This document shows, one piece after another, positions 2,180 to 18,048 of a stretch of 32,000 bases of DNA (position 1 is its first letter; every line of letters begins with the position of its first letter). The notes below the pieces were generated by a model. The model made no database searches and was not told where the DNA came from. It worked only from the letters and a program-made list of their open reading frames with translations. Source of the DNA: Nanobdellota archaeon (GTDB lineage Archaea; Nanobdellota; Nanobdellia; Woesearchaeales; SM23-78); the NCBI GenBank assembly GCA_038046485.1, contig JBBSWA010000033.1, forward strand, positions 9,632 through 41,631. The letters are read 5' to 3'. The position numbers and the translations under genes were made by a program.

Positions 2180-2352
2180 TATTTAGCATCTGCAAAATTC
2201 TTGCTTCACTTCCTGTAAGAGCTGCGTTCCCGTATGGAGTGCTCAGAAATGTTTGCATTTCTGGCACGCCAAGAGCTTCGCTCTTGAGCGCAACCCCTCG
2301 CAACGCTCCCACTGTGTTTACTCAACGAATTTTGCCCGGAGGATGCTAAATA
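2180..2352. ncRNA. structured intergenic element, copy A (unclassified family; ncRNA or MITE-like)
   Basis: Closing stems are TATTTAGCATCT/GGATGCTAAATA and GCAAAATTC/GAATTTTGC, separated by a 3'-side bulge. It has core blocks GCTGCGTTCCCGTATGGAG (2221-2239) and GCGCAACCCCTCGCAACGC (2288-2306) and two internal hairpins. It is homologous in architecture to copies B and C. Confidence 0.55.
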
Positions 2353-2358
2353 AATACC

Positions 2359-3678
2359 ATGGAAATCCTACCTTATTTACTAAAAAAACTACAGCAACTT
2401 GGAGCAGAAGATGTTGTCTTACAGTACAATGAAGAAGAAAGCACCCTGCTTAAGTTTGCGAATGATAAACTGGTGAATCATAAAAGCTGGACAGCAACGG
2501 GGACGGGCATTTTTGTTGCTTACAAAAAAAGAATTGTTTCGACTTCACTCCATGAGAATACAACTCAAGCAGCGGATGCCATTGCCAAAAAAACCATTGA
2601 ACTTGCTAAATTATCTGAGCCAAATCCGAATTACCACGGAATTGCGCAAGGCTTTAAGACGCGCCCTCCTGTCGAAGAATTGTATGACCCTAAAGTCAAA
2701 GACGCAGAACTGGTAGATATCTATCAAGAAAGCCTACAAAAAGCTCAACAATATGGTGCTACGCGAAATAGCGGCATCTTACAAAGCCGCATTGTCAAAA
2801 CCAATCTCCTTACGAGTGGTGGAATTGAAGCTAAGGAAGAAAAAACAGGATTGTATTATAGCATTCGAAGCTTTACCGACAAAGACGCTTCAGGCCATGG
2901 GGTTGCTACGAGCAATATGCTAGCTAAGTTTAAACCACAAAAAGCGGCACAGGAAGCAGCTGAGACTGCTGTAGATGGAAAGAACCCTAAATCAGGAATA
3001 GCTGGGAAATATGACATCTTGTTTCATCCTCACCCCATCTCCCATGTCTGGGAAAATATTGGACAAAGTGTTAGCCCCTACAATGTCGATGCAGGCTTCT
3101 CCTGCCTGAAAAATAAAGTCGGGGAAAAGATTGGCAGTGACTTGGTTACCTTACATGATGATGCCCGTCTTAAGAATGGATTTCATAGCACGGCGTTTGA
3201 CGCAGAAGGAGTCCCCAGCCAAGATACTTGCTTGATCAAAAAAGGCGTGTTTCAAACTTACTTGCACAATACGAGTACCGCTCACAAGTATGGTGTGAGC
3301 ACTACCGGAAATGCCGGACTGCTTTCTCCTGAGCCTTCTAATTTAGTTGTTTCACCCGGCGATCAGACGACCGAAGAAATGATTCAAGGCATGAAAAAGG
3401 GACTGTATGTGACGAATGTATGGTATACTCGTTTTCAAAATTATGAGAAAGGAGACTTTTCGACGATTCCTCGCGATGGGCTCTTCTACATTGAGAATGG
3501 CAAGATTCAATATCCTGTCAAGGAGTTACGTATCAGTGAAAACCTTCTTCGGATCCTAAAGAATGTGATCGCCCTTGGACGAAAAAGCGAACAAGTCTAC
3601 AGCTGGGAAGTGAATACGCCTACCCTTACCCCGCATGTGCTAGTGAAGGATTGCAATGTGACCAAGCCGACGGCCTAG
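2359..3678 (+). CDS. pmbA: PmbA/TldE-family protease subunit
   Basis: 439 aa paralog of TldD that lacks the HExxxH site. It shows the typical tldD-pmbA pairing and a C-terminal GxxxxxG..P.L.V motif region. Confidence 0.88.
   Translation: MEILPYLLKKLQQLGAEDVVLQYNEEESTLLKFANDKLVNHKSWTATGTGIFVAYKKRIVSTSLHENTTQAADAIAKKTIELAKLSEPNPNYHGIAQGFKTRPPVEELYDPKVKDAELVDIYQESLQKAQQYGATRNSGILQSRIVKTNLLTSGGIEAKEEKTGLYYSIRSFTDKDASGHGVATSNMLAKFKPQKAAQEAAETAVDGKNPKSGIAGKYDILFHPHPISHVWENIGQSVSPYNVDAGFSCLKNKVGEKIGSDLVTLHDDARLKNGFHSTAFDAEGVPSQDTCLIKKGVFQTYLHNTSTAHKYGVSTTGNAGLLSPEPSNLVVSPGDQTTEEMIQGMKKGLYVTNVWYTRFQNYEKGDFSTIPRDGLFYIENGKIQYPVKELRISENLLRILKNVIALGRKSEQVYSWEVNTPTLTPHVLVKDCNVTKPTA
3656..3678 (+). repeat. 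left copy of 23-nt direct repeat (pmbA 3' end) flanking the TA cassette
   Basis: ATGTGACCAAGCCGACGGCCTAG, compared with the copy at 4229-4251: 21/23 identical. Confidence 0.85.
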
Positions 3679-4005
3679 CTATTCAGAAAACCTTGTTTTT
3701 AAAGAATAAAGCCGCTTCCTAAAATTTCTATAGGCCTTATCATGTTTATCAATGACTAACATCCAAATCTCATTTCCTAAAATATAATAAATCAAACGGG
3801 TATTTGAAGTGATCTCTTCTCGATAACAATTTGAACCACCTGAGAGATGCTTTAACCTAAGTGGATTTGCCTTAATCTTTTCTTTCTTAGCCTCAAAAAT
3901 TTCGATATCATTCTTGGAAAGCTTACCTAAATCCTTAAAGAACTCTGAATGAAACCTAACTACGAACTTTCCCAACCTTAACCCCTCTCTTTTCAAGATA
4001 GGCAT
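3679..4005 (-). CDS. RelE/ParE-superfamily toxin (start uncertain; possibly an internal TTG near 3973)
   Basis: C-terminal LKHLSGGSNCYREEITSNTRLIYYILGNEIWMLVIDKHDKAY resembles archaeal RelE. It overlaps the 3' end of a small upstream partner ORF. Confidence 0.7.
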   Translation of the reverse strand: MPILKREGLRLGKFVVRFHSEFFKDLGKLSKNDIEIFEAKKEKIKANPLRLKHLSGGSNCYREEITSNTRLIYYILGNEIWMLVIDKHDKAYRNFRKRLYSLKTRFSE

Positions 4006-4165
4006 AATACTCTTTCTCCGACTTTCCTTTCTCTCTACCCGTGTCTATATCTAGAATTCTTTGCCTTACCTTAACATCTAGGGCCATCTCTACATCATCA
4101 ATTAACATTTCTACATCAGACAGGATCTTCGTAAAAACTTGCTTAGGAATAACAATCGACTCCAT
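3956..4165 (-). CDS. putative antitoxin (69 aa)
   Basis: Small ORF immediately upstream of and overlapping the toxin. The acidic helical N-terminus (ILSDVEMLIDDVEMALD) is typical of RelB/Phd-like partners. Confidence 0.55.
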   Translation of the reverse strand: MESIVIPKQVFTKILSDVEMLIDDVEMALDVKVRQRILDIDTGREKGKSEKEYYAYLEKRGVKVGKVRS

Positions 4166-4228
4166 AACCTACAAGAAGCGATGATCCCTTAAATAGTTAT
4201 CGGGATTTTAATTGACCTAGTTACTGTC

Positions 4229-4251
4229 ATGTGACCAAGCCTACGGCGTAG
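4229..4251 (+). repeat. right copy of 23-nt direct repeat (duplicate pmbA 3' end)
   Basis: ATGTGACCAAGCCTACGGCGTAG. Both mismatches fall on third codon positions, so it still reads VTKPTA-stop. Confidence 0.85.
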
Positions 4252-4440
4252 GCAGACAAAATTTATAAGGAAGACACCCGTTCATGAATTGTATAGATTA
4301 TAAGGATAATAAGAATGATCTTATGTGTCTCAAAAAATAAAATCATCATCACCCTTGTACTCTTACTCTGCTTATCCCTCTTTGTCAATTTCTTCCACCC
4401 CAAAAATAAGGGGAAAGCTTTAAAAATACTCCCCACAAAG

Positions 4441-4452
4441 TTTATATATAAA
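4441..4452 (+). promoter_or_regulatory. TATA box for pan
   Basis: TTTATATATAAA is centred about 28 nt upstream of the ATG at 4474, which suggests a leaderless or very short-leader mRNA. Confidence 0.5.
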
Positions 4453-4473
4453 GGGATCTATACCTAATCTTAC

Positions 4474-5643
4474 ATGAGTGACCCTTCTGATGCCGTTGTT
4501 AATGCCGACCTAAAGGCAACCTCTGAAGGTCCGGTCTTCTCGTTTACCACGACTTCCGGGCTTAACCTTGAAGAAGAAAATAAGCTATTGCGCGAGACGG
4601 TTCACCAGCTCAAAGAAGAAGTGAACAAGTATCGAACGCCTGCCCTGATGCTGGCGGACGTTGTAGACTTAATGGATGGCAAGGCCGTCATCAAAATCCC
4701 CAATGGAAACAAATTCCTTGTTGAAATTGCCGGACACGTCCAAAATGTGGCCCCCGGCCATTCTGTTCTCATCGAACAAAAAAACCTCACCGTTGTGGAT
4801 AAGATTGAAACCAACACCAAATTCCATGCTGAAAAGTTTGTCATCATCGAAAAACCCAATGTACCCTGGAGCCAAGTGGGTGGCTTAAAAAGCCAAATCG
4901 TTGACATCAAAGAAGTCATTGAACTCCCCCTCACCCACCCTGAACTATTCAAGAAAGTAGGCATCACACCCCCTAAAGGTATCTTGCTCTATGGACCACC
5001 TGGAACGGGGAAGACCTTACTTGCCAAGGCTGTTGCTTCTAGCGCTCACTGTACCTTCATTGAAATTGTGGCTTCTGAATTGGTTCAGAAGTTCATTGGA
5101 GAAGGCGCCAAACTTGTAAAAGAGATCTTTGAACTTGCACGCGCCAAAGCCCCAAGCATTGTCTTCATTGATGAGCTCGATGCCCTTGCTGCACGAAGAG
5201 TTGAACTCGGAACCTCGGGCGAACGCGAGGTTCAACGCACCTTCATGCAACTCCTTGCTGAATTGGACGGATTTAAACCCCTAGATAATGTTAAGATCAT
5301 TGGCTGCACCAACCGCAAAGACATTTTAGACCCAGCTATATTAAGACCTGGACGGCTTGATCGACTCATTGAAGTGACACACCCCAGCAAAGAAGGCATT
5401 TGCGATATCTTCAAGATCCACAGCCAAAACATGCGCTTCCAGGCCAACCTCGTTCCTAGCAAATTTTTGGATCACCTTGAAGAATTCTCCGGCGCTGAAA
5501 TCAAATCCGTATGCACGGAAGCTGGCTACTTTGCCATCCGAGCAAGCCGCACGGTCATCAATGAACAAGACCTCAAATCCGCCATTCAAAAAGTACGAAA
5601 AGAAGAAAATACGAGTAATGATTATTTAGGGATGTTTGGCTGA
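4474..5643 (+). CDS. pan: proteasome-activating nucleotidase (AAA+ ATPase)
   Basis: N-terminal coiled coil (LEEENKLLRETVHQLKEEVNKYRTP), an OB region, Walker A GPPGTGKT, Walker B IVFIDELDA, and a second region of homology. Confidence 0.92.
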   Translation: MSDPSDAVVNADLKATSEGPVFSFTTTSGLNLEEENKLLRETVHQLKEEVNKYRTPALMLADVVDLMDGKAVIKIPNGNKFLVEIAGHVQNVAPGHSVLIEQKNLTVVDKIETNTKFHAEKFVIIEKPNVPWSQVGGLKSQIVDIKEVIELPLTHPELFKKVGITPPKGILLYGPPGTGKTLLAKAVASSAHCTFIEIVASELVQKFIGEGAKLVKEIFELARAKAPSIVFIDELDALAARRVELGTSGEREVQRTFMQLLAELDGFKPLDNVKIIGCTNRKDILDPAILRPGRLDRLIEVTHPSKEGICDIFKIHSQNMRFQANLVPSKFLDHLEEFSGAEIKSVCTEAGYFAIRASRTVINEQDLKSAIQKVRKEENTSNDYLGMFG

Positions 5644-6353
5644 TTTCTAAAATAATTTCTTAGTGCCTCTTCCAACGCTGATTTTTCTGTTTGACTATTG
5701 CAAAAACCGTTTGAATTGCTAAGATCTGGTGCGTCAAAGTGTTCCTGCCTCATCAACCCCGATTCTGGATGGATTGTTTTCCAAATCCCCTTTTCAGATA
5801 AGTCTAGCCTTTCTACTAAAGCCCCACTTCCACCTCTTCTCAATCGAAAGTTTGCGTCCTCCACCCAAAGTGAACAAGCAACTTGATGGTCTAAGTCATA
5901 CAATTGAGAAGCCGCACACGCAAAAACCGCATTATGACCATAAGGGATTGAATGCCACGAAGCTGGATGTGGAGGTTCCTGAATTTTTTTTGCATCTTTT
6001 TCATTGAGTAATATTTTTGTCACTAAACCTGTATCTGCTAAACGAGACAGGTAATTTCCCTCCCGAGATTCCCTTGTTTTAATCGATAAAGCCTGCTTTA
6101 AGGCCTCACTTAATGGATCTTTTCCTTTTACTCCACTATGTCGAGTATACGCCTCTTCTTGAGATAAATGTGCAGCACCTAAGACTTCTCTGAACCAATC
6201 TGCACACCCATTGCTCAATCGCTTTACTAGAGGATCCAAAAGACCTGCCTCTAAAACAGCTTTATATGCTTCTGCAGAAGGTTCAATACGCATTCTAAAA
6301 AAGACTAATAAATCCAGGTCATTATAAAGATTATTATGCCAAAACCTAATCAT
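5622..6353 (-). CDS. hypothetical protein (243 aa)
   Basis: ATG-started ORF 17 nt downstream of trm5 on the same strand. It overlaps the pan 3' end by 22 nt in convergent orientation. I see no recognisable motif. Confidence 0.5.
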   Translation of the reverse strand: MIRFWHNNLYNDLDLLVFFRMRIEPSAEAYKAVLEAGLLDPLVKRLSNGCADWFREVLGAAHLSQEEAYTRHSGVKGKDPLSEALKQALSIKTRESREGNYLSRLADTGLVTKILLNEKDAKKIQEPPHPASWHSIPYGHNAVFACAASQLYDLDHQVACSLWVEDANFRLRRGGSGALVERLDLSEKGIWKTIHPESGLMRQEHFDAPDLSNSNGFCNSQTEKSALEEALRNYFRNQPNIPK

Positions 6354-6370
6354 TCCAGGATGCTATGAAG

Positions 6371-7420
6371 TTATCCTACTTTTGCATCGACGCAGAGCCT
6401 AAAGAGGCGCTGGCCGACTTGGCCGCACTTGACCAGGCGAAGAACACGACAGGATCTGTTGAGCGCTTTACAGGCTGCCCTTACCTTCTCTTTTGCTTGG
6501 TCCAACTCGCCCTCTTTTTCGATGTCGTAGAAATGGATGATGGCGTCTGGATTTGCAACAGACAATGCAAGGGTTAAGAAGGCCTCTGCGGAATGTGGAA
6601 GAGGCATGAGGATGCGATCAAACTTTTCGTCTAATTTAGGAAGGACTTTTCTTACATCCCCTTCATAGAAACGCACGTTTTTTACCTTGTTCAACCGGAT
6701 GTTTTCCTGCGCATATCGATGACCTTGGGGGTTGAGTTCAATGCCAACGATTTCCTTTGCTCTTGATTTTTTTGCAAAAACAACCGGGTAAACCCCGCAA
6801 CCGGAGAACATAACCAAGACCTTTTCATTGGGTTTAATTTGCTCGGCGATGCGCTTGCGATCCTCACTTAACCTGGGTGAGAAATAAACGGTTTCTACAT
6901 TTACGTGGATACGGACGCCATTTTCTTTATGGGTGGTTTCACGTGTGTCTTCTCCAGCTAAAAAGGCGAGTTTCTGAACACGAAGCTCCCCCTCATGCTT
7001 ACCTTTTTGAAGCACTGTTTTGATGCTTGGACGCGATTGCAGCAGGTGCTTAGCAATCAATTGAGCGCGCTGTTGCAGCTCATTTGCAACCTCAATGATC
7101 CCGATGTCCCCGACAACATCCAAAGAAGACTTGACCTTTGCTAATTCCTTCTCTGAAAGCTCTTTTTCTAATGAAGACTTCAGGTCTTGCGCTTTTAACC
7201 GGCGCGCTTTTAACTGAACCTCCACAAAAGGATACTTAGAAGTAAAACGTTTTAATACTGGAAACAGAATACAGGCCGGTTGCTTTGCAACAGCACTATC
7301 GTGCTGAGCTCGGCAAGGAACTTGCCTCGCAACCGAGTACCGCTTATCTAATAAGCCTTTTTTCATCAAGAACTGCTTGGCCTTTTCTGCTTCTTTTAGG
7401 GGGACCTTTATCGCTAACAT
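6371..7420 (-). CDS. trm5: Trm5/Taw2-family tRNA methyltransferase (Met-10 type SAM MTase)
   Basis: VLVMFSGCGVYPVVFAK...GIELNP...DRILMPLP motifs. The start was moved to the ATG at 7420 (MLAIKVPLKEAEK); the track ORF begins at an upstream GTG at 7465. Confidence 0.78.
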   Translation of the reverse strand: MLAIKVPLKEAEKAKQFLMKKGLLDKRYSVARQVPCRAQHDSAVAKQPACILFPVLKRFTSKYPFVEVQLKARRLKAQDLKSSLEKELSEKELAKVKSSLDVVGDIGIIEVANELQQRAQLIAKHLLQSRPSIKTVLQKGKHEGELRVQKLAFLAGEDTRETTHKENGVRIHVNVETVYFSPRLSEDRKRIAEQIKPNEKVLVMFSGCGVYPVVFAKKSRAKEIVGIELNPQGHRYAQENIRLNKVKNVRFYEGDVRKVLPKLDEKFDRILMPLPHSAEAFLTLALSVANPDAIIHFYDIEKEGELDQAKEKVRAACKALNRSCRVLRLVKCGQVGQRLFRLCVDAKVG

Positions 7421-7464
7421 GTTATACTGGGAAGAAAAGAAGTTTAAAAAGTTGCGTGTAAACA

Positions 7465-7839
7465 CTACTTCTTCCTATATCCCAAAATCTTATTATACTG
7501 AGCATGATCACAGATTTCAAAGACCACACTGATTACTCTAACTTCATCTCCGATTACATAATACAAAAGTCTCCAAAATTGAGACAATTCCATTCGAAAT
7601 AAATTTGGTAGGTTTTCGAATTCCTTTGGCCAAAGACGATGCGGCACCGGATCACCGGTAAATGGATTTATTTTAAGGATGTCCAATGAACGATGGATGC
7701 TCTTTAACAACTGTACATCTAATTTAGGGGGTGTCTTGCCCTGTGCTTCAACAGAATTAATAGAAGCTTCTAACTTTGCTAATGCTTCATCTGCTATCCC
7801 TATAACCTGCACTGACTTAGCCTTATCTCTTAATTCCAT
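7465..7839 (-). CDS. RelE/ParE-superfamily toxin-like protein (124 aa)
   Basis: NPFTGDPVPHRLWP...NLFRMELSQFWRLLYYVIGDEVRVISVVFEICDHAQYNKILGY matches the ParE/RelE C-terminal pattern. It overlaps the upstream partner by 10 nt. Confidence 0.62.
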   Translation of the reverse strand: MELRDKAKSVQVIGIADEALAKLEASINSVEAQGKTPPKLDVQLLKSIHRSLDILKINPFTGDPVPHRLWPKEFENLPNLFRMELSQFWRLLYYVIGDEVRVISVVFEICDHAQYNKILGYRKK

Positions 7840-8096
7840 GAACGGCCCTTACGCAAGATTGCCGCTATATCTTCTTTAGGTGTAGCAATCCATACGACAC
7901 CCTCTGGTGTAAATTCGATTTTTCCGCTTTTCTGCAAATAAGTTAGAATGACTTTGAGGGTATTGTGGTTGACTTTACGAGGCAAGCGACGCTTTAATTC
8001 AGCTATTTTTATGACTTCTTTTTCTTTTTGAATGGTGTCCTCTACCATTTGGACCGTGTCTAGAGTGGGACTGTGTAGCTTAAGGAGCTGTTTCAT
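7830..8096 (-). CDS. small winged-helix-like DNA-binding protein, putative antitoxin
   Basis: 88 aa, located upstream of and overlapping the toxin-like gene. It has an RRLPRKVNHNTLKVILTYLQKSGKIEF wHTH-like segment. Confidence 0.5.
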   Translation of the reverse strand: MKQLLKLHSPTLDTVQMVEDTIQKEKEVIKIAELKRRLPRKVNHNTLKVILTYLQKSGKIEFTPEGVVWIATPKEDIAAILRKGRSWN

Positions 8097-9015: not shown

Positions 9016-9887
9016 CCCACCACCAAATACACTCCCAACAACATCAAACCACAGGACAAGAATCTATGTACAAGCCTATGATCATGAAAGAAACGCCCCC
9101 CTATTAACACATCAAAAATCGTATATAAACGAGTTATTGGCACCAGTAAAGAAACATACGCCAAAGGAAGTGCAGAAAAATAAAAATAATTCGCCAACAT
9201 ATCAAACGCCGCTGATAGTAAAACCCAATGTCCCCCTAAACTCCAACTCATCTTTACATCCTTAAACCCTCCGTACCATAAAAAAGTGAGACCTATAAAG
9301 TTTAGAACGACCAGCAAACGCTCCAAGAAAAACAATGAAAAGGCATCAACGGGAGAAAAGGAAAGCCCGACTGTCTGAGGACTTACAAATATCTTATCAA
9401 AAACTTCGGACAACCCATACAATATGCTCGCTGCCAAACCGAACAATAAAAACTTTTTATCCTTCCATAACACATGGAGATTATCTGAGCAGAGCCATAT
9501 CCCCCCACCTACCAGGCAAAAAATGCCAAGGTAATGAATTGCTTTTAATTCTTCGCCCAAGAGAAAAACTCCGAAGAACAAAACAACCAACACACTTAAA
9601 TTCTCCAAAGGAATGTACTGGGAAACCTCCATATGCCGCAAAGCCTTGAACGCCAAGACCAAAGCCGAAACCCACAACAAAGAATCTACAAATAACAGCA
9701 CATACACCAAAGGTTCTAAATCCCAAACCACCCTACCTGAAAATGGAAGAATTAAAATCAAGCCAATGAGAGAAAATAAAGTGATGTATTGAATTGCATG
9801 CTGCTTAAACAATACTTTTTTACCCAAAACCACATGCACCGACCAGCACGCAGCTGCCAACAAACCCAATACATACCAAGGAAGCAT
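9012..9887 (-). CDS. EamA/DMT-superfamily transporter
   Basis: 291 aa polytopic membrane protein with a 4-nt overlap with the downstream paralog. Confidence 0.8.
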   Translation of the reverse strand: MLPWYVLGLLAAACWSVHVVLGKKVLFKQHAIQYITLFSLIGLILILPFSGRVVWDLEPLVYVLLFVDSLLWVSALVLAFKALRHMEVSQYIPLENLSVLVVLFFGVFLLGEELKAIHYLGIFCLVGGGIWLCSDNLHVLWKDKKFLLFGLAASILYGLSEVFDKIFVSPQTVGLSFSPVDAFSLFFLERLLVVLNFIGLTFLWYGGFKDVKMSWSLGGHWVLLSAAFDMLANYFYFSALPLAYVSLLVPITRLYTIFDVLIGGRFFHDHRLVHRFLSCGLMLLGVYLVVG

Positions 9888-10958: not shown

Positions 10959-10972
10959 GTTTACCGCGAAAT

Positions 10973-11095
10973 GGTTTAGCATCTTCAAAACTCGTGATGA
11001 TTACGTTGAGGGTTCTGCTGCCCCGAATGGGGCGTCCCCCGCCAACGAACCTAAAGATTTCTATGGAAGGAGTTTTGACCTTAGGATGCTAAACC
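10973..11095. ncRNA. structured intergenic element, copy B (minimal version)
   Basis: Closing stems are GGTTTAGCATC/GATGCTAAACC and CAAAACTC/GAGTTTTG. The core blocks GCTGCCCCGAATGGGG (11017-11032) and GCGTCCCCCGCCAACG (11032-11047) directly abut. Confidence 0.55.
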
Positions 11096-11130
11096 TTCTT
11101 TACCTCTTCTGAAAAACTATTAGGATCACA

Positions 11131-11160: not shown

Positions 11161-12138
11161 ATGGACTATCCGGCCCTACGAAGACTCATTGAAGAAAAAG
11201 GGCTTCTTAACAAAACCCCTGGGTATTACATCCGTACAAGTGCTATCCTTGTTGCTCTCTTTACCGGCACCTGGATTATCTATTATTACGTCCGCAATTT
11301 TTATATCCAGATTGGTATTGTTTGCCTGCTTGGATTCTTAGGCTTTCAATTTGGACTGCTCGCACACGATGCCGGCCATCGAGCGGTTTCCACCAAAAGG
11401 TGGCTCAATGAAACCATCGGATACCTCTCTTTAACCTTCATTAACGGGATCTCCATCCACCACTGGGAAACCAAACACAATGCTCACCATCGATCTCCTA
11501 ATTTTAACCCGGGAGACCCCGACATTGAACAAGTCTTTGCCTATGACACAACCCAAGCACGTGCACGAAAGGGCCTCCTCAAGTGGATTACTAAACATCA
11601 AATCGCCTTTTTCGTGCCCTTACATGCCTTAAGTGTATTTGACATGACACGCACTTCCTTCCAACATGTTCTTTTGCGATGTCCTTTCAAACGAAAGATG
11701 ATTGAACTCATTGGACTTCTTATGCATCTCGTGCTTTGGATCGGCATTCCAAGCTACTTCATCGGATTTTGGAAGGCCGCTTTGCTCTATGCCATCGGGA
11801 CCCTTGTACGCGGGCTCTATGCCTCCTTGGTCTTTGTACCCAACCACGTCGGAATGCCCCTTCCAAAACCAACAGATAAATTGTCTTATCTTGAAAAACA
11901 AGTCATCACGGCACGCAACCTAACCCCCTCCTTTTTCAAAGACTATATCTTTGGAGGTCTTAACTACCAAATCGAACACCACCTCTTTCCCAATATGTCC
12001 CGTAAATACCTCAAAAAAGCAAAAACAATTATCAAGAACTACTGCTTAACCAATAAGATTCCCTATAAAGAAACTGGATTCTTTACGTGCTACAAAGATG
12101 TCTTCACGCATATGTCCCAAGTGGGGAAAGCGGCTTAA
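11161..12138 (+). CDS. membrane fatty-acid desaturase family protein (front-end type His boxes)
   Basis: Three His boxes (HDAGH, HNAHH, QIEHH) with hydrophobic spans between them. There is no cytochrome b5 domain. Confidence 0.88.
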   Translation: MDYPALRRLIEEKGLLNKTPGYYIRTSAILVALFTGTWIIYYYVRNFYIQIGIVCLLGFLGFQFGLLAHDAGHRAVSTKRWLNETIGYLSLTFINGISIHHWETKHNAHHRSPNFNPGDPDIEQVFAYDTTQARARKGLLKWITKHQIAFFVPLHALSVFDMTRTSFQHVLLRCPFKRKMIELIGLLMHLVLWIGIPSYFIGFWKAALLYAIGTLVRGLYASLVFVPNHVGMPLPKPTDKLSYLEKQVITARNLTPSFFKDYIFGGLNYQIEHHLFPNMSRKYLKKAKTIIKNYCLTNKIPYKETGFFTCYKDVFTHMSQVGKAA

Positions 12139-12187
12139 ATTCCCTTCCTAAGCGCACACTGCTATCTTATATACCCTAAGGAAAAAG

Positions 12188-12238
12188 AATATAAGCAACT
12201 CAGCAATATAAGCAACTCAGCAATATAAGCAACTCAGC
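12188..12238. repeat. three perfect tandem copies of the 17-mer AATATAAGCAACTCAGC
   Basis: Read directly at 12188-12204, 12205-12221 and 12222-12238. Confidence 0.95.
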
Positions 12239-12309
12239 ATTTCTTTTTAGCAAAGGGACGCCATTCTAAAAATTTAGTAGGTGGCATACATGAAAAACAA
12301 AATTTATAG

Positions 12310-12398
12310 CAACAAACTTTAATATTCGGATAAAATTGTAAAGTTTGTTGAGATATAGGAAATCCTTAAAATATACGAAAATTAATGTGATTTCCTAT
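12310..12398. promoter_or_regulatory. two inverted repeats bracketing a TATA-like sequence upstream of the vWA gene
   Basis: CAACAAACTTT (12310-12320)/AAAGTTTGTTG (12340-12350) and ATAGGAAATC (12355-12364)/GATTTCCTAT (12389-12398). TTAAAATATA lies between the second pair. Confidence 0.45.
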
Positions 12399-12659
12399 AA
12401 TTGTCCAAAGAAACACTTTTACTTGTCCTTATCGCTGGAATCGTGACTATCACCGCCATCACCACTAACCCCATAACAGAAAAAAATAGGGGAGGAAAAG
12501 TCACTCTCAGTCCAACCGAACCTGTCTCGCAAGATACACTCTCCAGCACAGGTTCTATACTCTCTCAGACAAAAGGGAGATATAAAAAGTTCACCCCAAA
12601 AAATACAAATCTACTCGAGAAACAAAAAACTTATAAATCTCTCAACCAGGAAATGCGCT

Positions 12660-14888
12660 GTGACATCTCGGAACCTTACCCCACAGCTCACCATCGTAGC
12701 CCTTGTAGCGGTTGTAGCCATTGTTATCCTTCTGAACCTTGCTGGAACCTCCTTAAGCCCGGACGGCACGATTGGAGGAGAAGCGATTAAGAAACCAAAA
12801 ATTAAACCTCCCATCAACCTCCCGCCCGCAACCCAACTCAGTACGTCCAATACTCCCTTACAGCAAGTCACTATTGTCACCCCCACTGGGACTTATTTCC
12901 TAGCTGTCGACCAAGCAAGCCAACAAGCCTGCAACGGAACCGACTACTTATCTGTAGTAGACGTCAGTAGCAGCATGAACGACCCAGTAGGAAACGGTGC
13001 AGAGACAAAAATAGAACGTGCCCGAAAAGCGCTGGACTTCTTCCTCAGCAAAGTAGCAGGATACGCGCCACCTGACCAGGCAGGCATCGTCCGATTCTGG
13101 TCCATGGCTGAACTTGTGCAAGCCCTCACCTCCGACATCCCCCTCGTACGCAACAAAGCCGCCGCCCTCACCACCCTTTCAGGGACCAACATTGGTGCAG
13201 GACTCAGAATAGGCCAACAACAATTGGACACGCAAAACGTGCAGAAAGAAATCATGATCTTATGGTCAGATGGAGAACCAACCACCTGCCCAGACGCTGG
13301 AGGCATGGACTGCTGGCAGTACGCCCGACAGCAAGCCGATCAGGCCAAAGCAAAAGGCACGGAGATCTATGCACTTGGACTACCCCCAATAAAAGTAAAA
13401 AGCAAAGAAGAACAACTGCTAAAATACATTGCCAACGACCCCGACGAAACGCACTACTACCTGATCGGAACTGACTTTTCCAACCTTGAAGCTATCCTTG
13501 ACAAAATCCATGCCAACTACTGCAAATGCGGCAATGGTAAAGTAGACCCTGGCGAGCTCTGTGACGATAACAACACAAATTCTGCTGACGAATGCCATCA
13601 ATGCGTGCCTACGTACTGCGGCGACAAAATCATTCAAAAACCCAACGGAAAACACACAGGAGGGCCGAAAAACGACGGCTATGAGGACTGCGATGACGGC
13701 AACACCAATGCAAGCGATGGCTGTTACGGCTGCATGACCACCTATTGCGGAGATGGAATCGTACAAAAACCCAACGGAAAAAAGACAGGCGGACCTAAGA
13801 ATGACGGGTATGAGGACTGTGACAACGGGCCGGCTGGAAGCGCGACCTGCACTAAGAACTGCACTAAGATTCAGACCATCTGTGGCGACTCTATAGTTCA
13901 GAAACCCAACAGTTTAAAAATAGGAGGACCAAAAAACGACGGTTATGAAGAGTGCGACGCTGGACCAAGCGGAACTGCCAGCTGCACCAAAAACTGCATG
14001 CTCATACAATGTGGAAATGGCCGCCTAGACCCTAACGAAGAATGTGATGACGGAAACACAAACGCTAGCGACGGTTGTTACAATTGCAAACTCACCTATT
14101 GCGGAGATGGAATCGTACAAAAACCAAACGGAAAAAAGACAGGCGGACCGATGAACAACGGCATCGAAGTATGTGATGACGGAAACACCAATCCTACTGA
14201 CTTGTGCGGCAACAACTGCGTACAAACCTATTGTGGCGATACAATTGTACAGAAACCCAACGGAAGAAAACTAGGCGGACCCAAGAACGATGGCTACGAA
14301 GATTGCGACGCTGGAGTTGCAGGATCCACAACGTGTACGAAGAATTGCACCACGCCTCCAAAATGTGGAAACGGCATTGTTGAAGCTGGAGAAGAGTGCG
14401 ACGACGGAAACGCTGTTAACACAGATGCCTGTATGAATAGCTGTAAGAAAACCTACTGTGGCGACGGAATTATACAGAAACCAAACACACAAGGCAAAAA
14501 CGAAACGTGCGACGACGGAAACAATGTGCCTAATGACGGATGCACGAACTGCACCAAAGACCTTACCTTGAGCGTCAATTGGGCATACTATAAATCTACT
14601 TGTGGCACAAACAACATCCTAATAGAATGGAGCACCACCATGGAACAAGACACCGTCGGATTCAATGTTTTATGGAGCGACAACAAAAACGGACAATACA
14701 TCACCGTAAGCCCCTTCATCTACGCCACCGGAAGCGGAAGCAACTACCAATGGACAGACACTAACACCGATGCAAGCCCCATCACACCCAAAAAAGGGAT
14801 CTACAACTGGTATAAGGTGCAAGAAATATCTACTACTGGGCAAGGGGACGAAACAACACCATTCACAACAGACCACATCTGCCAGTAA
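12660..14888 (+). CDS. secreted/anchored vWA-domain protein with about 12 Cys-rich CxxCDDGN-type repeats
   Basis: GTG start (no ATG or other start codon in frame after the stop at 12474). N-terminal hydrophobic anchor LTIVALVAVVAIVILLNLAG. MIDAS DVSSS...GTNIG...SDGEP. Repeats such as CGNGKVDPGELCDDNNTNSADEC and YCGDGIVQKPNGKKTGGPKNDGYEDCD. Confidence 0.85.
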   Translation: MTSRNLTPQLTIVALVAVVAIVILLNLAGTSLSPDGTIGGEAIKKPKIKPPINLPPATQLSTSNTPLQQVTIVTPTGTYFLAVDQASQQACNGTDYLSVVDVSSSMNDPVGNGAETKIERARKALDFFLSKVAGYAPPDQAGIVRFWSMAELVQALTSDIPLVRNKAAALTTLSGTNIGAGLRIGQQQLDTQNVQKEIMILWSDGEPTTCPDAGGMDCWQYARQQADQAKAKGTEIYALGLPPIKVKSKEEQLLKYIANDPDETHYYLIGTDFSNLEAILDKIHANYCKCGNGKVDPGELCDDNNTNSADECHQCVPTYCGDKIIQKPNGKHTGGPKNDGYEDCDDGNTNASDGCYGCMTTYCGDGIVQKPNGKKTGGPKNDGYEDCDNGPAGSATCTKNCTKIQTICGDSIVQKPNSLKIGGPKNDGYEECDAGPSGTASCTKNCMLIQCGNGRLDPNEECDDGNTNASDGCYNCKLTYCGDGIVQKPNGKKTGGPMNNGIEVCDDGNTNPTDLCGNNCVQTYCGDTIVQKPNGRKLGGPKNDGYEDCDAGVAGSTTCTKNCTTPPKCGNGIVEAGEECDDGNAVNTDACMNSCKKTYCGDGIIQKPNTQGKNETCDDGNNVPNDGCTNCTKDLTLSVNWAYYKSTCGTNNILIEWSTTMEQDTVGFNVLWSDNKNGQYITVSPFIYATGSGSNYQWTDTNTDASPITPKKGIYNWYKVQEISTTGQGDETTPFTTDHICQ

Positions 14889-14910
14889 AAAAGCGCCCAG
14901 GCCCGGACAT

Positions 14911-14929
14911 TCAGAAAAACCATTTCTGA
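14911..14929 (+). other. TCAGAAA-N5-TTTCTGA hairpin just downstream of the vWA gene
   Basis: 7-bp perfect stem 23 nt after the stop. It has the same stem sequence as hairpins inside elements A and C and at 17380-17402. Confidence 0.5.
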
Positions 14930-15001
14930 TTCTTCGTTTGAACCGAGAATCCCAGAGGGACCGGTTGACTTCTGCCCTGAAACCTACGGTTCCAGGGTGC
15001 T

Positions 15002-15090
15002 CAAAAATTGTAAACAATTTTTGGCATGTCGGATTCCTTAAGAACTATTACATCTCAAAAATTGCTTAGCAATTTTAGCATGTCGGATCC
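15002..15090 (+). repeat. 54-nt-period tandem duplication: hairpin CAAAAATTG..CAATTTTTG followed by GCATGTCGGAT(T)CC
   Basis: Copies at 15002-15037 and 15056-15090, read directly. Confidence 0.8.
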
Positions 15091-15222
15091 ATTAAAGGAC
15101 TCCGCCACTTCAAGACCGGCGCACTTTCCTGTGTTGGACAGAAAACCATCCATCATACCAGATTATGCGACCTGGGCACACCCCTGAAAAAGAAGCTTTG
15201 CTTTTAAATACTTACGTTGTCT

Positions 15223-16074
15223 TTACGATTTCTTATGATTCTTGACCCAATCATTGAGCTTAAACTTATAATATCCGAAAGCCAATTTCAAATTGCCCTG
15301 CGCTACCTTCATCCCTTTAGGACTTGTCAGGATATGCGCCTCCTTCAAAACCGTTTCAAATGTCTTTGTGAAAAAATTCGATTCCATACCAATTACGAAT
15401 GACCTTCTCTTGCGAATTCTTTCCAAAAATTCTTCTACTTTTACCTTGCCCTCCACTCCTGTTACTGTCTTTCCTAAATCTCTTACTAGGTGCCCGTCTG
15501 AACCTCCAATCAAGCCCTTGCCCCCCTCCACTGCCCATTGATAGGCTTTATTATTCATCTTCTTTAAAGAATTTGTATTTAACACTTCCACACAATCCAG
15601 ATTCTTCATAAAATCTTTCTTTAATCGCGAGGTCTGTATCCCCACATAACTAAAATACGGATGAGCCGCCCCGACCAAGCAATTTATTCCCTTCAATTTG
15701 TCTAATAAATCCACTGCAGAGATACTTAGACTTAAGCTTTTATCCATAAAAGGGCGCATACACTTATTTTCCAACTCCAATAAATCTGATTTTGAATACG
15801 GATACGCCAATATGTGAACTCCTTCCTTGCTCTTTAGTTCAACACCTGGCACTACAAACACATCCTTTTGAGATAATGCCATTAATGAGCCTTGTACTTG
15901 ATTATGATCGGTTATAGCAACGCCCATCCCTAACTTTTTACATCGTTTTAAAATCTTACCAATATCACTTCGACTATCATATGAGTACTTTGAATGAAAA
16001 TGCATATCCGCCAAGGTGTAAGCTGAAAGATCTAACTTCTTTGGCTTTGCCCGAATCATCCCCTGCTTACCCAT
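15223..16074 (-). CDS. PHP-domain metal-dependent phosphoesterase
   Basis: Typical PHP His/Asp motifs: DMHFHSKYSYDS, AITDHN, GVEL..HILAY, AAHPY, EVLN, GGSDGH. Confidence 0.83.
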   Translation of the reverse strand: MGKQGMIRAKPKKLDLSAYTLADMHFHSKYSYDSRSDIGKILKRCKKLGMGVAITDHNQVQGSLMALSQKDVFVVPGVELKSKEGVHILAYPYSKSDLLELENKCMRPFMDKSLSLSISAVDLLDKLKGINCLVGAAHPYFSYVGIQTSRLKKDFMKNLDCVEVLNTNSLKKMNNKAYQWAVEGGKGLIGGSDGHLVRDLGKTVTGVEGKVKVEEFLERIRKRRSFVIGMESNFFTKTFETVLKEAHILTSPKGMKVAQGNLKLAFGYYKFKLNDWVKNHKKS

Positions 16075-16096
16075 TCATTTAAAATAAACGGGCAGC

Positions 16097-16105
16097 TATA
16101 TAAAA
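16097..16105 (-). promoter_or_regulatory. TATA box for the PHP gene
   Basis: TATATAAAA is centred about 27 nt upstream of the ATG at 16074. Confidence 0.45.
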
Positions 16106-16244
16106 TTTCTCCACCTAGCTTAAAGAGAAGCTTCCCTTGCGTTTATATAAAACAAGACCTCTTTCTTAACCCCACTACAGAAACCTTTTTAAACCCCTTC
16201 CAGATCACCTGTCTATAACCACTATTATAGAATTCATCGTGGTT

Positions 16245-16296
16245 ATTGAGCATGCTCAGAATTCCACTCACTTATGCTCAATTGGCGGAATTCTGA
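16245..16296 (+). promoter_or_regulatory. interleaved inverted repeats in the rpl37ae leader
   Basis: ATTGAGCAT (16245-16253) pairs with ATGCTCAAT (16274-16282). TCAGAATTCC (16256-16265) pairs with GGAATTCTGA (16287-16296). Confidence 0.5.
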
Positions 16297-16316
16297 CATT
16301 AAATAGGGCATGTACA

Positions 16317-16568
16317 ATGACACAAAAAAACCTCTATGGTTCTGTAAAGCGCTTTGGCGCACGATACGGCCGAAGGCTACGAGAAAAGCTCGGCAAGGTT
16401 GAACAAGAGCAGCATAAGCTCCATAAATGCCCTTACTGCCACTTCATCAAGGCTAAACAGCTTGCTGTTGGTATTTGGGAGTGCCGAAAGTGCGAGAGCA
16501 AATTCACCAATAAAGCTTATACGGTAGGCAAACTTACCCCGATCAAAGTTATTGTCCAAACTGAATAA
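16317..16568 (+). CDS. rpl37ae: 50S ribosomal protein L37Ae (eL43)
   Basis: GSVKRFGARYGRRLR...CPYC...WECRKC zinc ribbon. The start was moved to the ATG at 16317; the track uses an upstream GTG at 16239. Confidence 0.9.
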   Translation: MTQKNLYGSVKRFGARYGRRLREKLGKVEQEQHKLHKCPYCHFIKAKQLAVGIWECRKCESKFTNKAYTVGKLTPIKVIVQTE

Positions 16569-16609
16569 TATTCGAAAAGATTAGAACATTCATATTTGAG
16601 GGATCCAAC

Positions 16610-16747
16610 ATGAGCGAATACAAATGTTTCTTTTGCAATAAAATCGTTGCGCCACAACACGTAAAGAAAAAAGTTAGATGCATCTATTGCGGCAGCAAGA
16701 TCCTATTCAAAGACCGCGTAACGGCTACCAAAGTGGTCGCCCGCTAA
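16610..16747 (+). CDS. rpoP: DNA-directed RNA polymerase subunit P (Rpo12), 45 aa, below the track size cutoff
   Basis: MSEYKCFFCNK...VRCIYCGSKILFKDR zinc-ribbon pattern. A GAGGGAT Shine-Dalgarno-like motif lies 6 nt upstream. The position after rpl37ae is the conserved one. Confidence 0.8.
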   Translation: MSEYKCFFCNKIVAPQHVKKKVRCIYCGSKILFKDRVTATKVVAR

Positions 16748-16749
16748 AC

Positions 16750-16983
16750 ATGTATACTGCTGAAATCCTTGTAAACACTAAAGCCAATCTTGAAAAGATA
16801 TTCCAAAGCGAAGAAAAAAATATCAACGAGCGAGCCCAGTATACCTTAACCAAAAATAAAGATGTGCATGTCTTTCGCATTGAAGCAAAAGACGCAACGG
16901 CCTTACGCATCGTTGTTGGTAGCATCACCAAGGTCCTAAGCGTACATGAAAAAACATTGGAGGTCATCGAAAAAAATAAATAA
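16750..16983 (+). CDS. pcc1: KEOPS subunit Pcc1-like protein
   Basis: 77 aa with FRIEAKDATALRIVVGSITKVLSVHEKTLEV, which resembles the Pcc1 C-terminal helix. It has the conserved position between rpoP and pfdB. The start is 2 nt after the rpoP stop. Confidence 0.68.
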   Translation: MYTAEILVNTKANLEKIFQSEEKNINERAQYTLTKNKDVHVFRIEAKDATALRIVVGSITKVLSVHEKTLEVIEKNK

Positions 16984-16985
16984 CC

Positions 16986-17348
16986 ATGAACCCCCAAGAA
17001 CAAAAACCGGACGCTGAAACGGAGAACAAGATCAACCAGTTATCCATGCTCGAACAAAACCTGCAAAGCGTTGCCCTTCAAAAACAACAATTCCAAAATC
17101 AAAACCTTGAGATTGAAAGTGCCCTCTCCGAACTTGAGGGAAGCGAAGAAGCCTTTAAGATCATCGGAAACCTCATGGTTAAAATTACGAAGGACAAACT
17201 CAAGAGCGACCTTTCCAACAAGAAAGAAACCGGGCAATTACGCCTTAAGTCCCTCGAAAAGCAAGAATCCATGTTTCGAGAGAAGACCAAGGCCCTCCAA
17301 GAAGAGATCCTCAAGCATATTCAAACAGGAGCTCAAAAAAGCTCCTGA
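16986..17348 (+). CDS. pfdB: prefoldin beta subunit
   Basis: 120 aa coiled coil-beta hairpin-coiled coil pattern (LQSVALQKQQFQNQNLEIESALSELE...FKIIGNLMVKITKDKL...). Confidence 0.85.
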   Translation: MNPQEQKPDAETENKINQLSMLEQNLQSVALQKQQFQNQNLEIESALSELEGSEEAFKIIGNLMVKITKDKLKSDLSNKKETGQLRLKSLEKQESMFREKTKALQEEILKHIQTGAQKSS

Positions 17349-17353
17349 ACCAA

Positions 17354-17432
17354 CAAAAATCGCAAGCAATTTTTGGGGCTCAGAAACCTAAATGGTTTCT
17401 GAACTTTGAGAACCAAAAAAAAGTTCTCAAAG
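17354..17432 (+). other. three consecutive hairpins between pfdB and the UPF0147 gene
   Basis: CAAAAAT/ATTTTTG (17354-17375), TCAGAAACC/GGTTTCTGA (17380-17402) and CTTTGAGAAC/GTTCTCAAAG (17404-17432). Confidence 0.6.
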
Positions 17433-17475
17433 AACCGGGGAAAAAATCCGAGTCATAACAGAGGTGAAGGGGAAC

Positions 17476-17784
17476 ATGAATACACAAAACGAAGTGCAAG
17501 ACGCACTTAGCAACCTAATCGGTGACAACAGCGTACCTAAAAATATCCGCAGCCGTCTGGGCATAATCCTGCAGAACTTGGGGCATACGCAAAACATACA
17601 TCTTCAACTCAACCAGAGCCTCTCTGACTTGGACGACATCAGCAATGACATCAACTTGCCGCCCTTTGTACGAACCGAGCTTTTTAGCGTTCTTAGCCTG
17701 CTTGAAAACATGAACAACCAGCTTGTGAGTTTGCCCATTCAAGTCAAAGCGATTGTCAAAAAGAAACACGTTGTACAGCATTAA
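17476..17784 (+). CDS. UPF0147-family protein
   Basis: DNSVPKNIRSRL...LDDISNDINLPPFVRTELFSVLSLLE matches the archaeal UPF0147 pattern. The ATG at 17476 is preceded by GAGGTGA at 17460-17466; the track starts at the GTG at 17464. Confidence 0.8.
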   Translation: MNTQNEVQDALSNLIGDNSVPKNIRSRLGIILQNLGHTQNIHLQLNQSLSDLDDISNDINLPPFVRTELFSVLSLLENMNNQLVSLPIQVKAIVKKKHVVQH

Positions 17785-17786
17785 TT

Positions 17787-17815
17787 TTATTTTTTTTCTG
17801 TTTGTATTTTTTATT
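17787..17815 (+). terminator. oligo-T rich terminator region
   Basis: Runs T8, T6 and T3 directly after the stop codon fit the archaeal oligo-T terminator pattern. Confidence 0.45.
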
Positions 17816-17818
17816 TGT

Positions 17819-18048
17819 GTTTGTTTAGCATCTTCAAAATCCTCTATTATAACTCTATAAGCGCTGCACCCCCGTAAGGGACACACAGAAATTCAACGGA
17901 TTTCTGGTGCAGAGGAATGAAACATTCCTCGCACGAGGAGTTCAGAACTCCTCTGTGCCAGAAATCGTTCGACGATTTCTGTGCATCCCCGTGCAACGCG
18001 CTTAATAAGCACATTGCATGGATTTTGACCTGAAGATGCTAAACAAAC
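17819..18048. ncRNA. structured intergenic element, copy C (expanded version)
   Basis: 17-bp closing stem GTTTGTTTAGCATCTTC/GAAGATGCTAAACAAAC and a second stem AAAATCC/GGATTTT. Core blocks are GCTGCACCCCCGTAAGGG (17863-17880) and GTGCATCCCCGTGCAACGCGC (17981-18001). Four hairpins lie between them. Confidence 0.6.

Follow-up and report, generated by a model that had tools for sequence, protein, structure and literature searches.

The closest described systems to the elements considered here are the non-autonomous DNA transposons (MITEs) of prokaryotes, for which we took as points of comparison Correia/NEMIS in Neisseria, RUP in Streptococcus, SM1-SM4 in Sulfolobus and the MITEs of Haloquadratum. 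Conservation at a transposon end is usually greatest in the outermost 6-7 bp. Modular repeats with stable secondary structures and a variable number of internal modules are known from BOX in Streptococcus pneumoniae and from the Rickettsia palindromic elements, while PATE and REP/REPIN elements carry subterminal hairpins at each end, are associated with a Y1 transposase and have neither terminal inverted repeats (TIRs) nor target-site duplications (TSDs). Eight-bp duplications are made by the insertion sequence families IS66/ISBst12, IS6, ISL3, IS1595, IS256 and the ISH1 group (ISfinder).

The window, by which we mean the whole 32 kb stretch of DNA that was analysed, holds three copies of a single element family, all on the + strand, at 2182-2350 (copy A), 10975-11093 (copy B) and 17824-18043 (copy C). 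These copies are spaced 7-9 kb apart among housekeeping genes on both strands. We consider them, with a probability of about 0.8, to be copies of a MITE family of Woesearchaeales-type DPANN archaea. The family is new and would be mobilised in trans, probably by a DDE transposase, and it represents a known kind of element, folded unusually well, rather than a new RNA gene family. The parts of the three copies are as follows.

2165-2172: copy A, left TSD, CTATGAAC, a 7/8 match to the empty site CTATGGAC of comparison locus L255
2173-2181, + strand: copy A, decayed 5' outer arm, TCGATTATA (consensus GTATTTG), where the empty-site match ends
2182-2350, + strand: copy A, body with the fold and the shared blocks
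2182-2197, + strand: copy A, 5' end
2221-2225, + strand: copy A, core GCTGC
2227-2239, + strand: copy A, hairpin P5
2239-2267 and 2268-2291, + strand: copy A, extra hairpins
2294-2306, + strand: copy A, C-rich strand and GCAACGC
2330-2350, + strand: copy A, 3' end including the bulge
2351-2356, + strand: copy A, 3' outer arm, TAAATA(C) (consensus CAAATAC)
2357-2364: copy A, right TSD, CCATGGAA, 5/8 to the left copy and 6/8 to the empty site, with a boundary ambiguity of 1 nt
10960-10967: copy B, left TSD, TTTACCGC, 7/8 against the right copy
10968-10974, + strand: copy B, 5' outer arm, GAAATGG
10975-11093, + strand: copy B, body, the short form without extra hairpins
11094-11098, + strand: copy B, 3' outer arm, CCTTC, shorter by 2 nt than its 5' counterpart
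11099-11106: copy B, right TSD, TTTACCTC
17817-17823, + strand: copy C, 5' outer arm, GTGTTTG
17824-18043, + strand: copy C, body with four extra hairpins
17886-17906, 17912-17930, 17936-17954 and 17959-17981, + strand: copy C, extra hairpins
18044-18050, + strand: copy C, 3' outer arm, CAAACCA
18051-18066: ACAAACGATGCTCGAC, directly after the 3' arm of copy C; from a reading of the sequence alone, it may be the end remnant of another copy

Copies of the family are 115-235 bp long and have no coding capacity; they share no conserved ORF, and the ORFs that overlap them are chance frames. The first-pass annotation had reported three copies, and each of them does lie at the stated coordinates, on the + strand, and carries the exact 5' end TTTAGCATCT(K)CAAAA and the 3' end TTTTG(M)CC..A.GATGCTAAA. 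The consensus termini, GTATTTG+TTTAGCATCT... on the left and ...GATGCTAAA+CAAATAC on the right, are longer than was recognised at that stage. The TIRs are imperfect, with an outer arm of 7 bp (GTATTTG / CAAATAC in the consensus), a box of 10 bp (TTTAGCATCT / AGATGCTAAA) and an inner box of 9 bp (KCAAAAYYC / GRRTTTTGM) as their three segments. At least 10 copies contain GTATTTGTTTAGCATCTKCAAAAYYC together with its imperfect complement, and the left and right ends of the element pair over ~26 bp. The right end has 5-6 additional bases (CCNNA) between the two boxes, making the ends asymmetric and giving the folded single strand a one-sided bulge, which is conserved on the 3' strand opposite a wholly paired strand. 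The base that follows TTTAGCATCT forms a pair with the one that follows TTTTG (T:A in six copies, G:C in three), which brings the inner helix to 9 bp and the bulge to 5-6 nt. The closing helices and 3'-strand bulge first described are present, although their sizes needed correction. A similar adjustment applies to the outer extensions, in which compensatory changes had been noted: they are complementary, but rather than varying freely they are decayed forms of the 7-bp arm GTATTTG / CAAATAC found in most copies outside the window. Across the family the arms vary in sequence while complementarity is kept (GTATTTG/CAAATAC, TACGTG/CACGTA, GTGCAT/ATGCAC, GGTAGTGG/CCACTACC), and several copies with a perfect TSD have outer arms of unequal length.

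Inside the ends, the window copies share the blocks GCTGC, CCCG-loop-GGG and CCCC..GCAACG, with no extra hairpins in B, two in A and four in C. These shared blocks and hairpin insertions had been correctly described, as had the GC-rich interiors (49-57%, against 29-50% in the 100-nt flanks and 45.6% in the whole window). The tandem hairpin modules also occur in a tRNA intron of a relative. Overall pairwise identity among the three window copies is 59-63%. The copies of the family are old and diverse (40-88% identity) and retain their ends and a fully foldable body.

The elements are insertions rather than conserved genes, as seen from empty sites and TSDs, both of which the first-pass annotation had proposed looking for in relatives. 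All three window positions correspond to empty orthologous sites in relatives with flanking proteins 74-87% identical. From the tldD stop to the pmbA ATG there are 197 nt in the window and 5 nt in L255 (PmbA 87% identical) and L256 (74%). The fen1-desaturase spacer measures 230 nt in the window against 92-95 nt in L269, L272 and L273 (desaturase identity 82%, 87% and 76%, respectively), where the empty site of copy B reads TTTACCGA in L272 and TTTACTTG in L269 and L273. The UPF0147-MscS spacer is 287 nt in the window and 28 nt in L269, so that the site of copy C is empty there. All three window copies arose after the split from these relatives. Reciprocally, two relatives each hold one copy where the window genome is empty: a perfect CATGAGCG duplication borders the L269 copy (9497-9668), whereas CATGAGCG is present once at window positions 16609-16616, and the spacer corresponding to that of the L255 variant copy (~533-652) is just 34 nt in L001.

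The TSDs, which the first-pass annotation had missed, are 8-bp direct repeats immediately outside the outer arms. Six copies have perfect duplications:

L245: GTTATTTC
L247: CTTTTTTC
L253: CAATTATC
L207b: CGAAAATA
L227b: ACGCTTCA
L269: CATGAGCG

Three further copies match at 7/8, among them L251 (GAAAGGAC / GAAAAGAC) and window copy B (TTTACCGC / TTTACCTC), and copy A has decayed to 5/8; for copy C no clean TSD is resolvable. Integration duplicates exactly 8 bp of target. The pmbA start codon (2359) lies inside the right TSD of copy A, and a second insertion, in L269, likewise duplicates the start codon of the downstream gene, which encodes a small Zn-ribbon protein; the elements thereby reshape 5' ends and operon spacers. 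The intergenic location of the copies, and the oligo-T tract 3' of which copy C lies, would also suit independent host regulatory palindromes (terminators, operators) or chance similarity. We give that explanation almost no credence, as it is already refuted by the TSDs and by the empty sites in the same intergenic regions of relatives; exact 16-mers, moreover, occur three times in 32 kb and recur in unrelated MAGs.

Further copies, which the first-pass annotation had suggested seeking in related metagenomes, do exist, together with variant subfamilies, at unrelated loci in other Woesearchaeal/Nanoarchaeal MAGs. Copies are present in at least seven assemblies, with three in 8 kb at L207 and two in 3 kb at L227 besides the three in the 32 kb window, and additional copies, partial copies and ends-only remnants all occur. 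One subtype was found in unrelated gene contexts across different genomes. The two extra hairpins of copy A recur at unrelated loci, in L251 and, as the reverse complement, in L269 (9497-9668); their stems are identical across the three copies and their loops unrelated. In the variant subfamilies (L227 23-141, L255 533-652) the architecture, the bulge ACCTTAG and the C-rich strand are kept and the helix sequences are replaced.

Each window copy folds much better than its dinucleotide shuffles, with z-scores of -5.7, -5.2 and -11.7 for copies A, B and C. Changes on both sides affect 22 of 38 pairs (7.9 in shuffles, 6-9 in slid controls; 0 of 500 shuffles reach 22), paired cells amount to 90.4% against 78.2% in shuffles, and the core covaries too, with 5 of 8 pairs in helix 3 changed on both sides. 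Covariation, which the first-pass annotation had proposed testing, is strong, and where a simple mobile element had been expected to show identical copies, TSDs and no covariation, the TSDs and empty sites are present but the copies are old, divergent and strongly covarying. The structural observation of the first-pass annotation is right, and the fold still requires an explanation. We consider that it matters, core included, and that the best reading is of a palindromic mobile element under constraint; covariation of this kind is also to be expected from palindromic DNA.

The preferred proposal of the first-pass annotation, a novel ncRNA gene family, is unsupported as stated, given the empty sites, the 8-bp TSDs and the lack of a strand-specific signal in either folding energy or the tolerance of G.U versus A.C mismatches. 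The MFEs of the two strands are similar, and in 8 of 13 copies the minus strand equals or betters the plus strand in folding; 14 mismatches are of the G.U type and 9 of the A.C type. The Rfam search that had been called for gave no match at the gathering score, either for the window or for 6 loci, and chance-level matches only in E-value mode. As regards a gene family in the Rfam sense, the elements show the covariation but have no curated match, strand signal or conserved genomic position. A related idea is that the MITE carries a functional RNA, in which a mobile element's conserved core (the closing helices with their one-sided bulge, the GC-rich P3/P4 helix, hairpin P5 and the C-rich strand) would be a structured RNA read from one strand and serving either the host or the element itself (as a cofactor of its mobilisation that binds protein or acts like a guide, for instance). 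Core covariation, the retained architecture of the variant subfamilies, the identical stems with unrelated loops and the GC-enriched interior would all fit. However, strand preference and an Rfam relative are absent, the copy flanks, read as sequence, have no consistent promoter or terminator, and template-switch correction in palindromic DNA yields an identical pattern; we regard this RNA as unlikely. Two RNA motifs were also rejected. The archaeal bulge-helix-bulge is a 4-bp helix flanked by two 3-nt bulges, one on each strand, whereas the present fold has its single 5-6 nt bulge on the 3' strand opposite a wholly paired one. In a K-turn, tandem sheared G.A pairs follow a bulge of 3 nt, and C/D-box sRNAs have boxes C (RUGAUGA) and D (CUGA); here the non-bulged strand reads CUU/CUG beside the inner helix with no GA, and UGAUGA occurs in few copies.

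The conservation of pairing rather than sequence at the tips, and of a bulge on one strand, would be explained if a recombinase or integrase acted on a snap-back folded DNA strand, in the way that attC sites and IS200/IS605 ends are used. Copies are also co-oriented within contigs (window +++, L207 ---, L227 ++), although the relation of orientation to skew is weak (7 of 8 loci) and the L269 copy, read on the syntenic strand, has the reverse orientation to those of the window. Tyrosine and HUH recombinases do not make a fixed 8-bp target duplication, and the attC R-box (GTTRRRY), an integrase and cassette organisation are lacking, making a structure-specific single-stranded DNA element very improbable. 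An integron attC site proper was rejected on the same ends without GTTRRRY, the absence of an integrase, the 7-9 kb spacing and the TSDs; an IS200/IS605-derived PATE or a REP/REPIN was rejected because the ends pair over ~26 bp and 8-bp TSDs are present. More broadly, the ACCTTAG-type bulge, the CAAAA helix, the covarying core, P5 and C-rich strand, and the tips that pair without conserved sequence could together form a folded single-strand module, of RNA or snap-back DNA, recognised in mobilisation. The family would then be a structure-guided archaeal transposon rather than a sequence-recognised MITE, and the tandem hairpin modules might be a separate class of mobile mini-hairpins; we hold this to be doubtful. 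Should the fold prove to be needed for mobilisation, the family would point to an unrecognised archaeal transposition mechanism.

The alternative raised in the first-pass annotation, a MITE-like palindromic element with protein-recognised ends, is the one that we favour. Small non-coding size, shared TIRs, a fixed-length TSD, insertion polymorphism and dispersed copies were all found. Counting against a MITE are the outermost 6-7 bp, which vary between copies with complementarity kept, the covarying internal helix and hairpin, which have no obvious role in the recognition of double-stranded DNA, the lack of a resolvable TSD in copy C, and the absence of a transposase domain or autonomous partner from the window and from the tested ORFs near copies. 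The fixed 8-bp duplication implies that a transposase acting in trans, most probably a DDE enzyme, makes a staggered cut in the target. Copies within one genome differ by far more than the time since insertion would allow, from which we infer that the shared features (ends, bulge, GC-rich core helix, hairpin P5 and C-rich strand) were maintained in propagating source lineages, and hence that they would be cis-requirements or fitness traits of the element. The foldback may join the two ends for the transposase or, alternatively, may render the insert harmless within transcripts. Compensatory changes and hypervariable loops can arise in DNA through quasipalindrome template-switch correction and breakage at palindrome centres.

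DPANN genomes are very small, and a repeat at about one copy per 10 kb thus burdens them to a notable degree and is useful for tracking recent changes in the genome. The window density of three copies in 32 kb corresponds to ~94/Mb, and a published census gives ~105 MITEs/Mb for a Woesearchaeal genome (PMC11602168). The family also provides a clean case of a mobile palindrome that mimics an RNA gene in covariation tests, which is relevant to ncRNA discovery pipelines.

The present family has an 8-bp target duplication in common with the insertion sequence families listed at the outset, and its consensus tip is GTAT, where IS66 ends start GTA(A); this resemblance can serve as a lead only, with no IS66/ISBst12, IS6, ISL3, IS1595, IS256 or ISH1 transposase found near any copy. 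Like integron attC sites, the elements have imperfect inverted repeats, structure conserved more than sequence, extrahelical bases on one strand, a variable, branchable central region and a shared orientation along an array, whereas attC sites are without TSDs, have R boxes, flank single-gene cassettes and need IntI. The varying hairpin number (0, 2 or 4) recalls the variable boxB units of BOX, although BOX and the Rickettsia palindromic elements are bacterial and unrelated in sequence, and BOX is without the clear TIRs and TSDs that the present family has. Unlike the prokaryotic MITEs named at the outset, the family has no known parent IS, its copies are highly diverged (~60% within one genome) with ends and fold kept, its right end carries a conserved 5-6 nt insertion, and its GC-rich core helix and hairpin covary while the extreme tips vary. 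Like them, it is small and non-coding, has TIRs and a fixed-length target duplication, is dispersed in intergenic DNA, varies between related genomes, folds as a long hairpin and appears to depend on a transposase acting in trans.

The three intergenic elements of the window, copies A, B and C, belong to a MITE family: they are small and non-coding, with inverted-repeat ends and a fixed 8-bp duplication, and they are dispersed and strain-variable. The first-pass annotation had proposed a novel ncRNA family, with a MITE-like palindromic element as the alternative; target-site duplications (TSDs) and empty sites at related loci bear out the alternative. The copies themselves are present as described:

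2182-2350, plus strand: copy A, between tldD and pmbA, with two extra hairpins
10975-11093, plus strand: copy B, between fen1 and a desaturase gene, the minimal form with no extra hairpins
17824-18043, plus strand: copy C, between the UPF0147 and MscS genes, with four extra hairpins

All three share the ends originally reported, 5' TTTAGCATCT(G/T)CAAAA and 3' TTTTG(C/A)CC..A.GATGCTAAA, and their interiors are enriched in GC as claimed. The proposed stacked helices with a bulge on the 3' strand alone also stand, but the base that follows TTTAGCATCT forms a pair (T:A or G:C) with the one that follows TTTTG, so that the inner helix has 9 bp and the bulge 5-6 nt. The outer extensions TA/TA (A), GG/CC (B) and GTTTG/CAAAC (C) are complementary, as had been noted, but they are decayed or variant forms of a longer arm: in aligned copies the conserved end reaches 7 bp farther outward, GTATTTG ... 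CAAATAC. With these arms the element ends read GTATTTGTTTAGCATCT ... AGATGCTAAACAAATAC, and variant tips also occur. The extra hairpins of A and C occupy one identical insertion point within the core. As single strands, all three are much more stably folded than their dinucleotide shuffles, with z = -5.7 (A), -5.2 (B) and -11.7 (C).

Further copies were sought by sequence scans of collections and with nhmmer profiles. A genome-collection scan (5' end plus GCTGC) returned at least 118 stretches, mostly chance, and among the matches listed only L135 (Woesearchaeota Bin_36), L207 (Nanoarchaeia SMAG_U8006) and L227 (DeMMO3_35) were real; a metagenome scan gave 12 stretches, four of them real copies. 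The additional DPANN loci are L135, L245, L247, L251 and L253, together with L207 (three copies on a single strand), L227 (two copies) and L261 (one decayed copy). Viral contigs scanned with a 16-mer and a 20-mer gave chance matches in coding DNA only, and plasmid and phage BLAST gave no match. Contigs from Hainich groundwater (well H51, 0.1 um filter samples included) encode a PmbA identical to that of the window; NCBI assigns it to a 'Nanoarchaeota archaeon', with Woesearchaeota as its relatives. Orientation of the copies agrees with GC skew at 7 of 8 loci and is contradicted by the copy at L269, a contig syntenic with the window; it is not relied upon here. Shorter, end-like sequences occur as well. 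L247 has a 43-nt ends-only hairpin (GCATTTGTTTAGC..GCGCTAAACAAATAC, 3071-3113) directly upstream of its full copy, L135 an ends-only remnant TTTAGATGCTAAAC (2108-2122) about 20 nt upstream of its own, and in the L207 organism the spacer between tldD and pmbA is taken up by three TATGTGCAT end-like fragments (L261 9893-10000).

Direct repeats of 8 bp adjoin the outer arms on the outside:

Target-site duplications of the family
L245: perfect, GTTATTTC
L247: perfect, CTTTTTTC
L253: perfect, CAATTATC
L207 4504-4628: perfect, CGAAAATA
L227 23-141: perfect, ACGCTTCA
L269 9497-9668: perfect, CATGAGCG
L251: 7/8
Copy B: 7/8, TTTACCGC (10960-10967) / TTTACCTC (11099-11106)
Copy A: decayed, CTATGAAC / CCATGGAA
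Copy C: no clean TSD

Related genomes supply the corresponding empty sites. The tldD-pmbA spacer measures 197 nt in the window versus 5 nt (TGAAACCTATG, TGAAAACCATG) in relatives whose PmbA is 87% or 74% identical, and the target duplicated at copy A is the octamer CTATGGAC, in which the ATG of pmbA lies. The spacer from fen1 to the desaturase gene is 230 nt long in the window versus 92-95 nt in three related contigs. One is the 17-kb contig L269, whose desaturase is 82% identical; in the other two, both shorter, the identity is 87% and 76%. TTTACC(G/T)N occurs once only in these spacers. The UPF0147-MscS spacer is 287 nt in the window versus 28 nt in L269. The polymorphism also runs the other way. 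Between CATGAGCG repeats, L269 has a 172-bp derivative of the A type (9489-9676 with the repeats; reverse orientation, four tandem hairpins) from which one outer arm and the CAAAA inner helix are missing. This octamer is single in the window (16609-16616), where a small Zn-ribbon gene has its start codon within it. L255, the relative with the 87% identical PmbA, has a variant copy (~533-652) in its RelA/SpoT-NUDIX spacer, which is empty in the window's genome (34 nt, L001 4393-4428). This variant has different ends (GGTAGTGGCT...GCCACTACC) and no clean TSD; its true ends may lie at an inverted repeat farther out, GTACAAAGT/ACTTTCTAC. Furthermore, the extra hairpins of A recur in the L251 copy, whose neighbouring genes are unrelated. 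Empty sites, reciprocal polymorphism and this unrelated context together identify the copies as mobile-element insertions.

The automatic fen1 ORF begins at TTG 10988, within copy B. The true start is almost certainly ATG 10928 (MGV..., 346 aa), to judge by the 345-aa gene of L269, which places copy B outside the gene and, as the first-pass annotation held, between two divergent TATA boxes. Beyond the desaturase gene, a 742-aa VWA/DUF4215 gene (12660-14888) absent from L269 lies before the PHP gene (region 12139-15222), with a 17-nt unit, AATATAAGCAACTCAGC, repeated three times in tandem upstream of it (~12189-12240). Farther on, two Laminin_G_3 proteins (953 and 839 aa) precede a plus-strand frame 3 ORF of at least 2408 codons (24777-32000), open at the window end and with strong GC and AT skew; Laminin_G_3 in the syntenic L269 gene (from 12170) suggests a giant surface protein.

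Copies A, B and C are only 59-63% identical to one another despite insertion after the split from close relatives, so they came from different source lineages, and their common features were thus maintained in those lineages. Covariation was assessed in nine short copies, two variant subfamilies among them. Standard pairs make up 90.4% of pair cells, against 78.2% in shuffles, and the compensatory change first noted in the stems is confirmed, with both-side changes in 22 of 38 pairs versus 7.9 after shuffling and 6-9 when the register is slid. A dedicated RNA read from the element might account for this fold, since both-side changes reach the core helix (5 of 8 pairs) and the architecture outlives the sequence in the variant subfamilies: L227 23-141 and L255 533-652 have TTTAGCATC and the core helix sequences replaced, yet keep the architecture, including the inner helix in L255, with the bulge (ACCTTAG / ACTTTAT; ACCTTAG in L255), hairpin P5 and C-rich strand. 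However, in 8 of 13 copies the minus strand folds at least as well as the plus strand, mismatches of G.U type (14) barely exceed those of A.C type (9), and the copies have no consistent promoter or terminator. Rfam gave no match above chance level, either at gathering score for the window and six loci or in E-value mode for each copy. With mobile insertions, no Rfam match and no strand preference, the ncRNA family lacks support. K-turn, bulge-helix-bulge, attC, IS200/605 and Y-RNA-like readings were dropped on sequence grounds, and a pseudoknot between the bulge and purine-rich linkers was, by eye, inconsistent across copies.

As mobile DNA, the element would instead carry a foldback that is selected on or regenerated. 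Such a foldback may bring the ends together, or ensure that a transcribed insert stays compact and does no harm. Template-switch repair of quasipalindromes, with centre-break revision, could yield compensatory changes and variable loops without RNA function. In A, L251 and L269 the stems of the extra hairpins are identical, and their loops are unrelated. A CAGAAAT-loop-ATTTCTG module with conserved stems and unrelated loops lies both inside and outside TTTAGCATC-ended elements (window 2244-2263, 17886-17906 and 17959-17981; L269 26-45 and 9589-9607; L273 1759-1778). Such modules, and the hairpin-rich L269 1-300 with its end-like fragments (CAAATAC, TTGACAAAGGATGC), may be small mobile hairpins of a separate class. 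The locus L273 also holds a tRNA-Ser(UGA) gene (1549-1723, minus strand), missed by default ARAGORN and Rfam and found by ARAGORN intron mode, whose 92-nt intron at 38/39 consists of three tandem perfect hairpins; four more tandem hairpins, the CAGAAAT...ATTTCTG module among them, lie right beside it (1735-1835). The window holds no tRNA or tmRNA, intron mode included.

The fixed 8-bp stagger suggests that a transposase, most likely a DDE enzyme, acts in trans. A Pfam search of 30 ORFs from the window, L135, L207, L247 and L251 detected no transposase domain, and the gene tables precomputed for six other loci list no transposase. A single-strand intermediate recognised by its structure would explain why the extreme tips vary yet pair (GTATTTG/CAAATAC, TACGTG/CACGTA, GTGCAT/ATGCAC), why unequal outer arms stand beside perfect or 7/8 TSDs (L207b, L227b, L269, B), why a 5-6 nt insertion is present at the right end of every copy, and why copies are co-oriented in each contig (window +++, L207 ---, L227 ++), but that mechanism is not known to yield a fixed 8-bp duplication. 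Duplications of 8 bp are made by IS66/ISBst12, IS6, ISL3, IS1595 and IS256, and IS66 ends start with GTA; a link to these families is a lead, not a result.

The MITE family is of interest chiefly because it marks recent change in the reduced genome of an archaeon and warns against relying on covariation to discover RNAs. In the literature on DPANN/Woesearchaeota MITEs and IS66 features, the sole relevant match was a MITE census (PMC11602168), in which a Woesearchaeal genome has 105 MITEs/Mb; the three copies per 32 kb of the window represent the same order of density. MITEs as a kind are already known, and what is new is this well-structured family.
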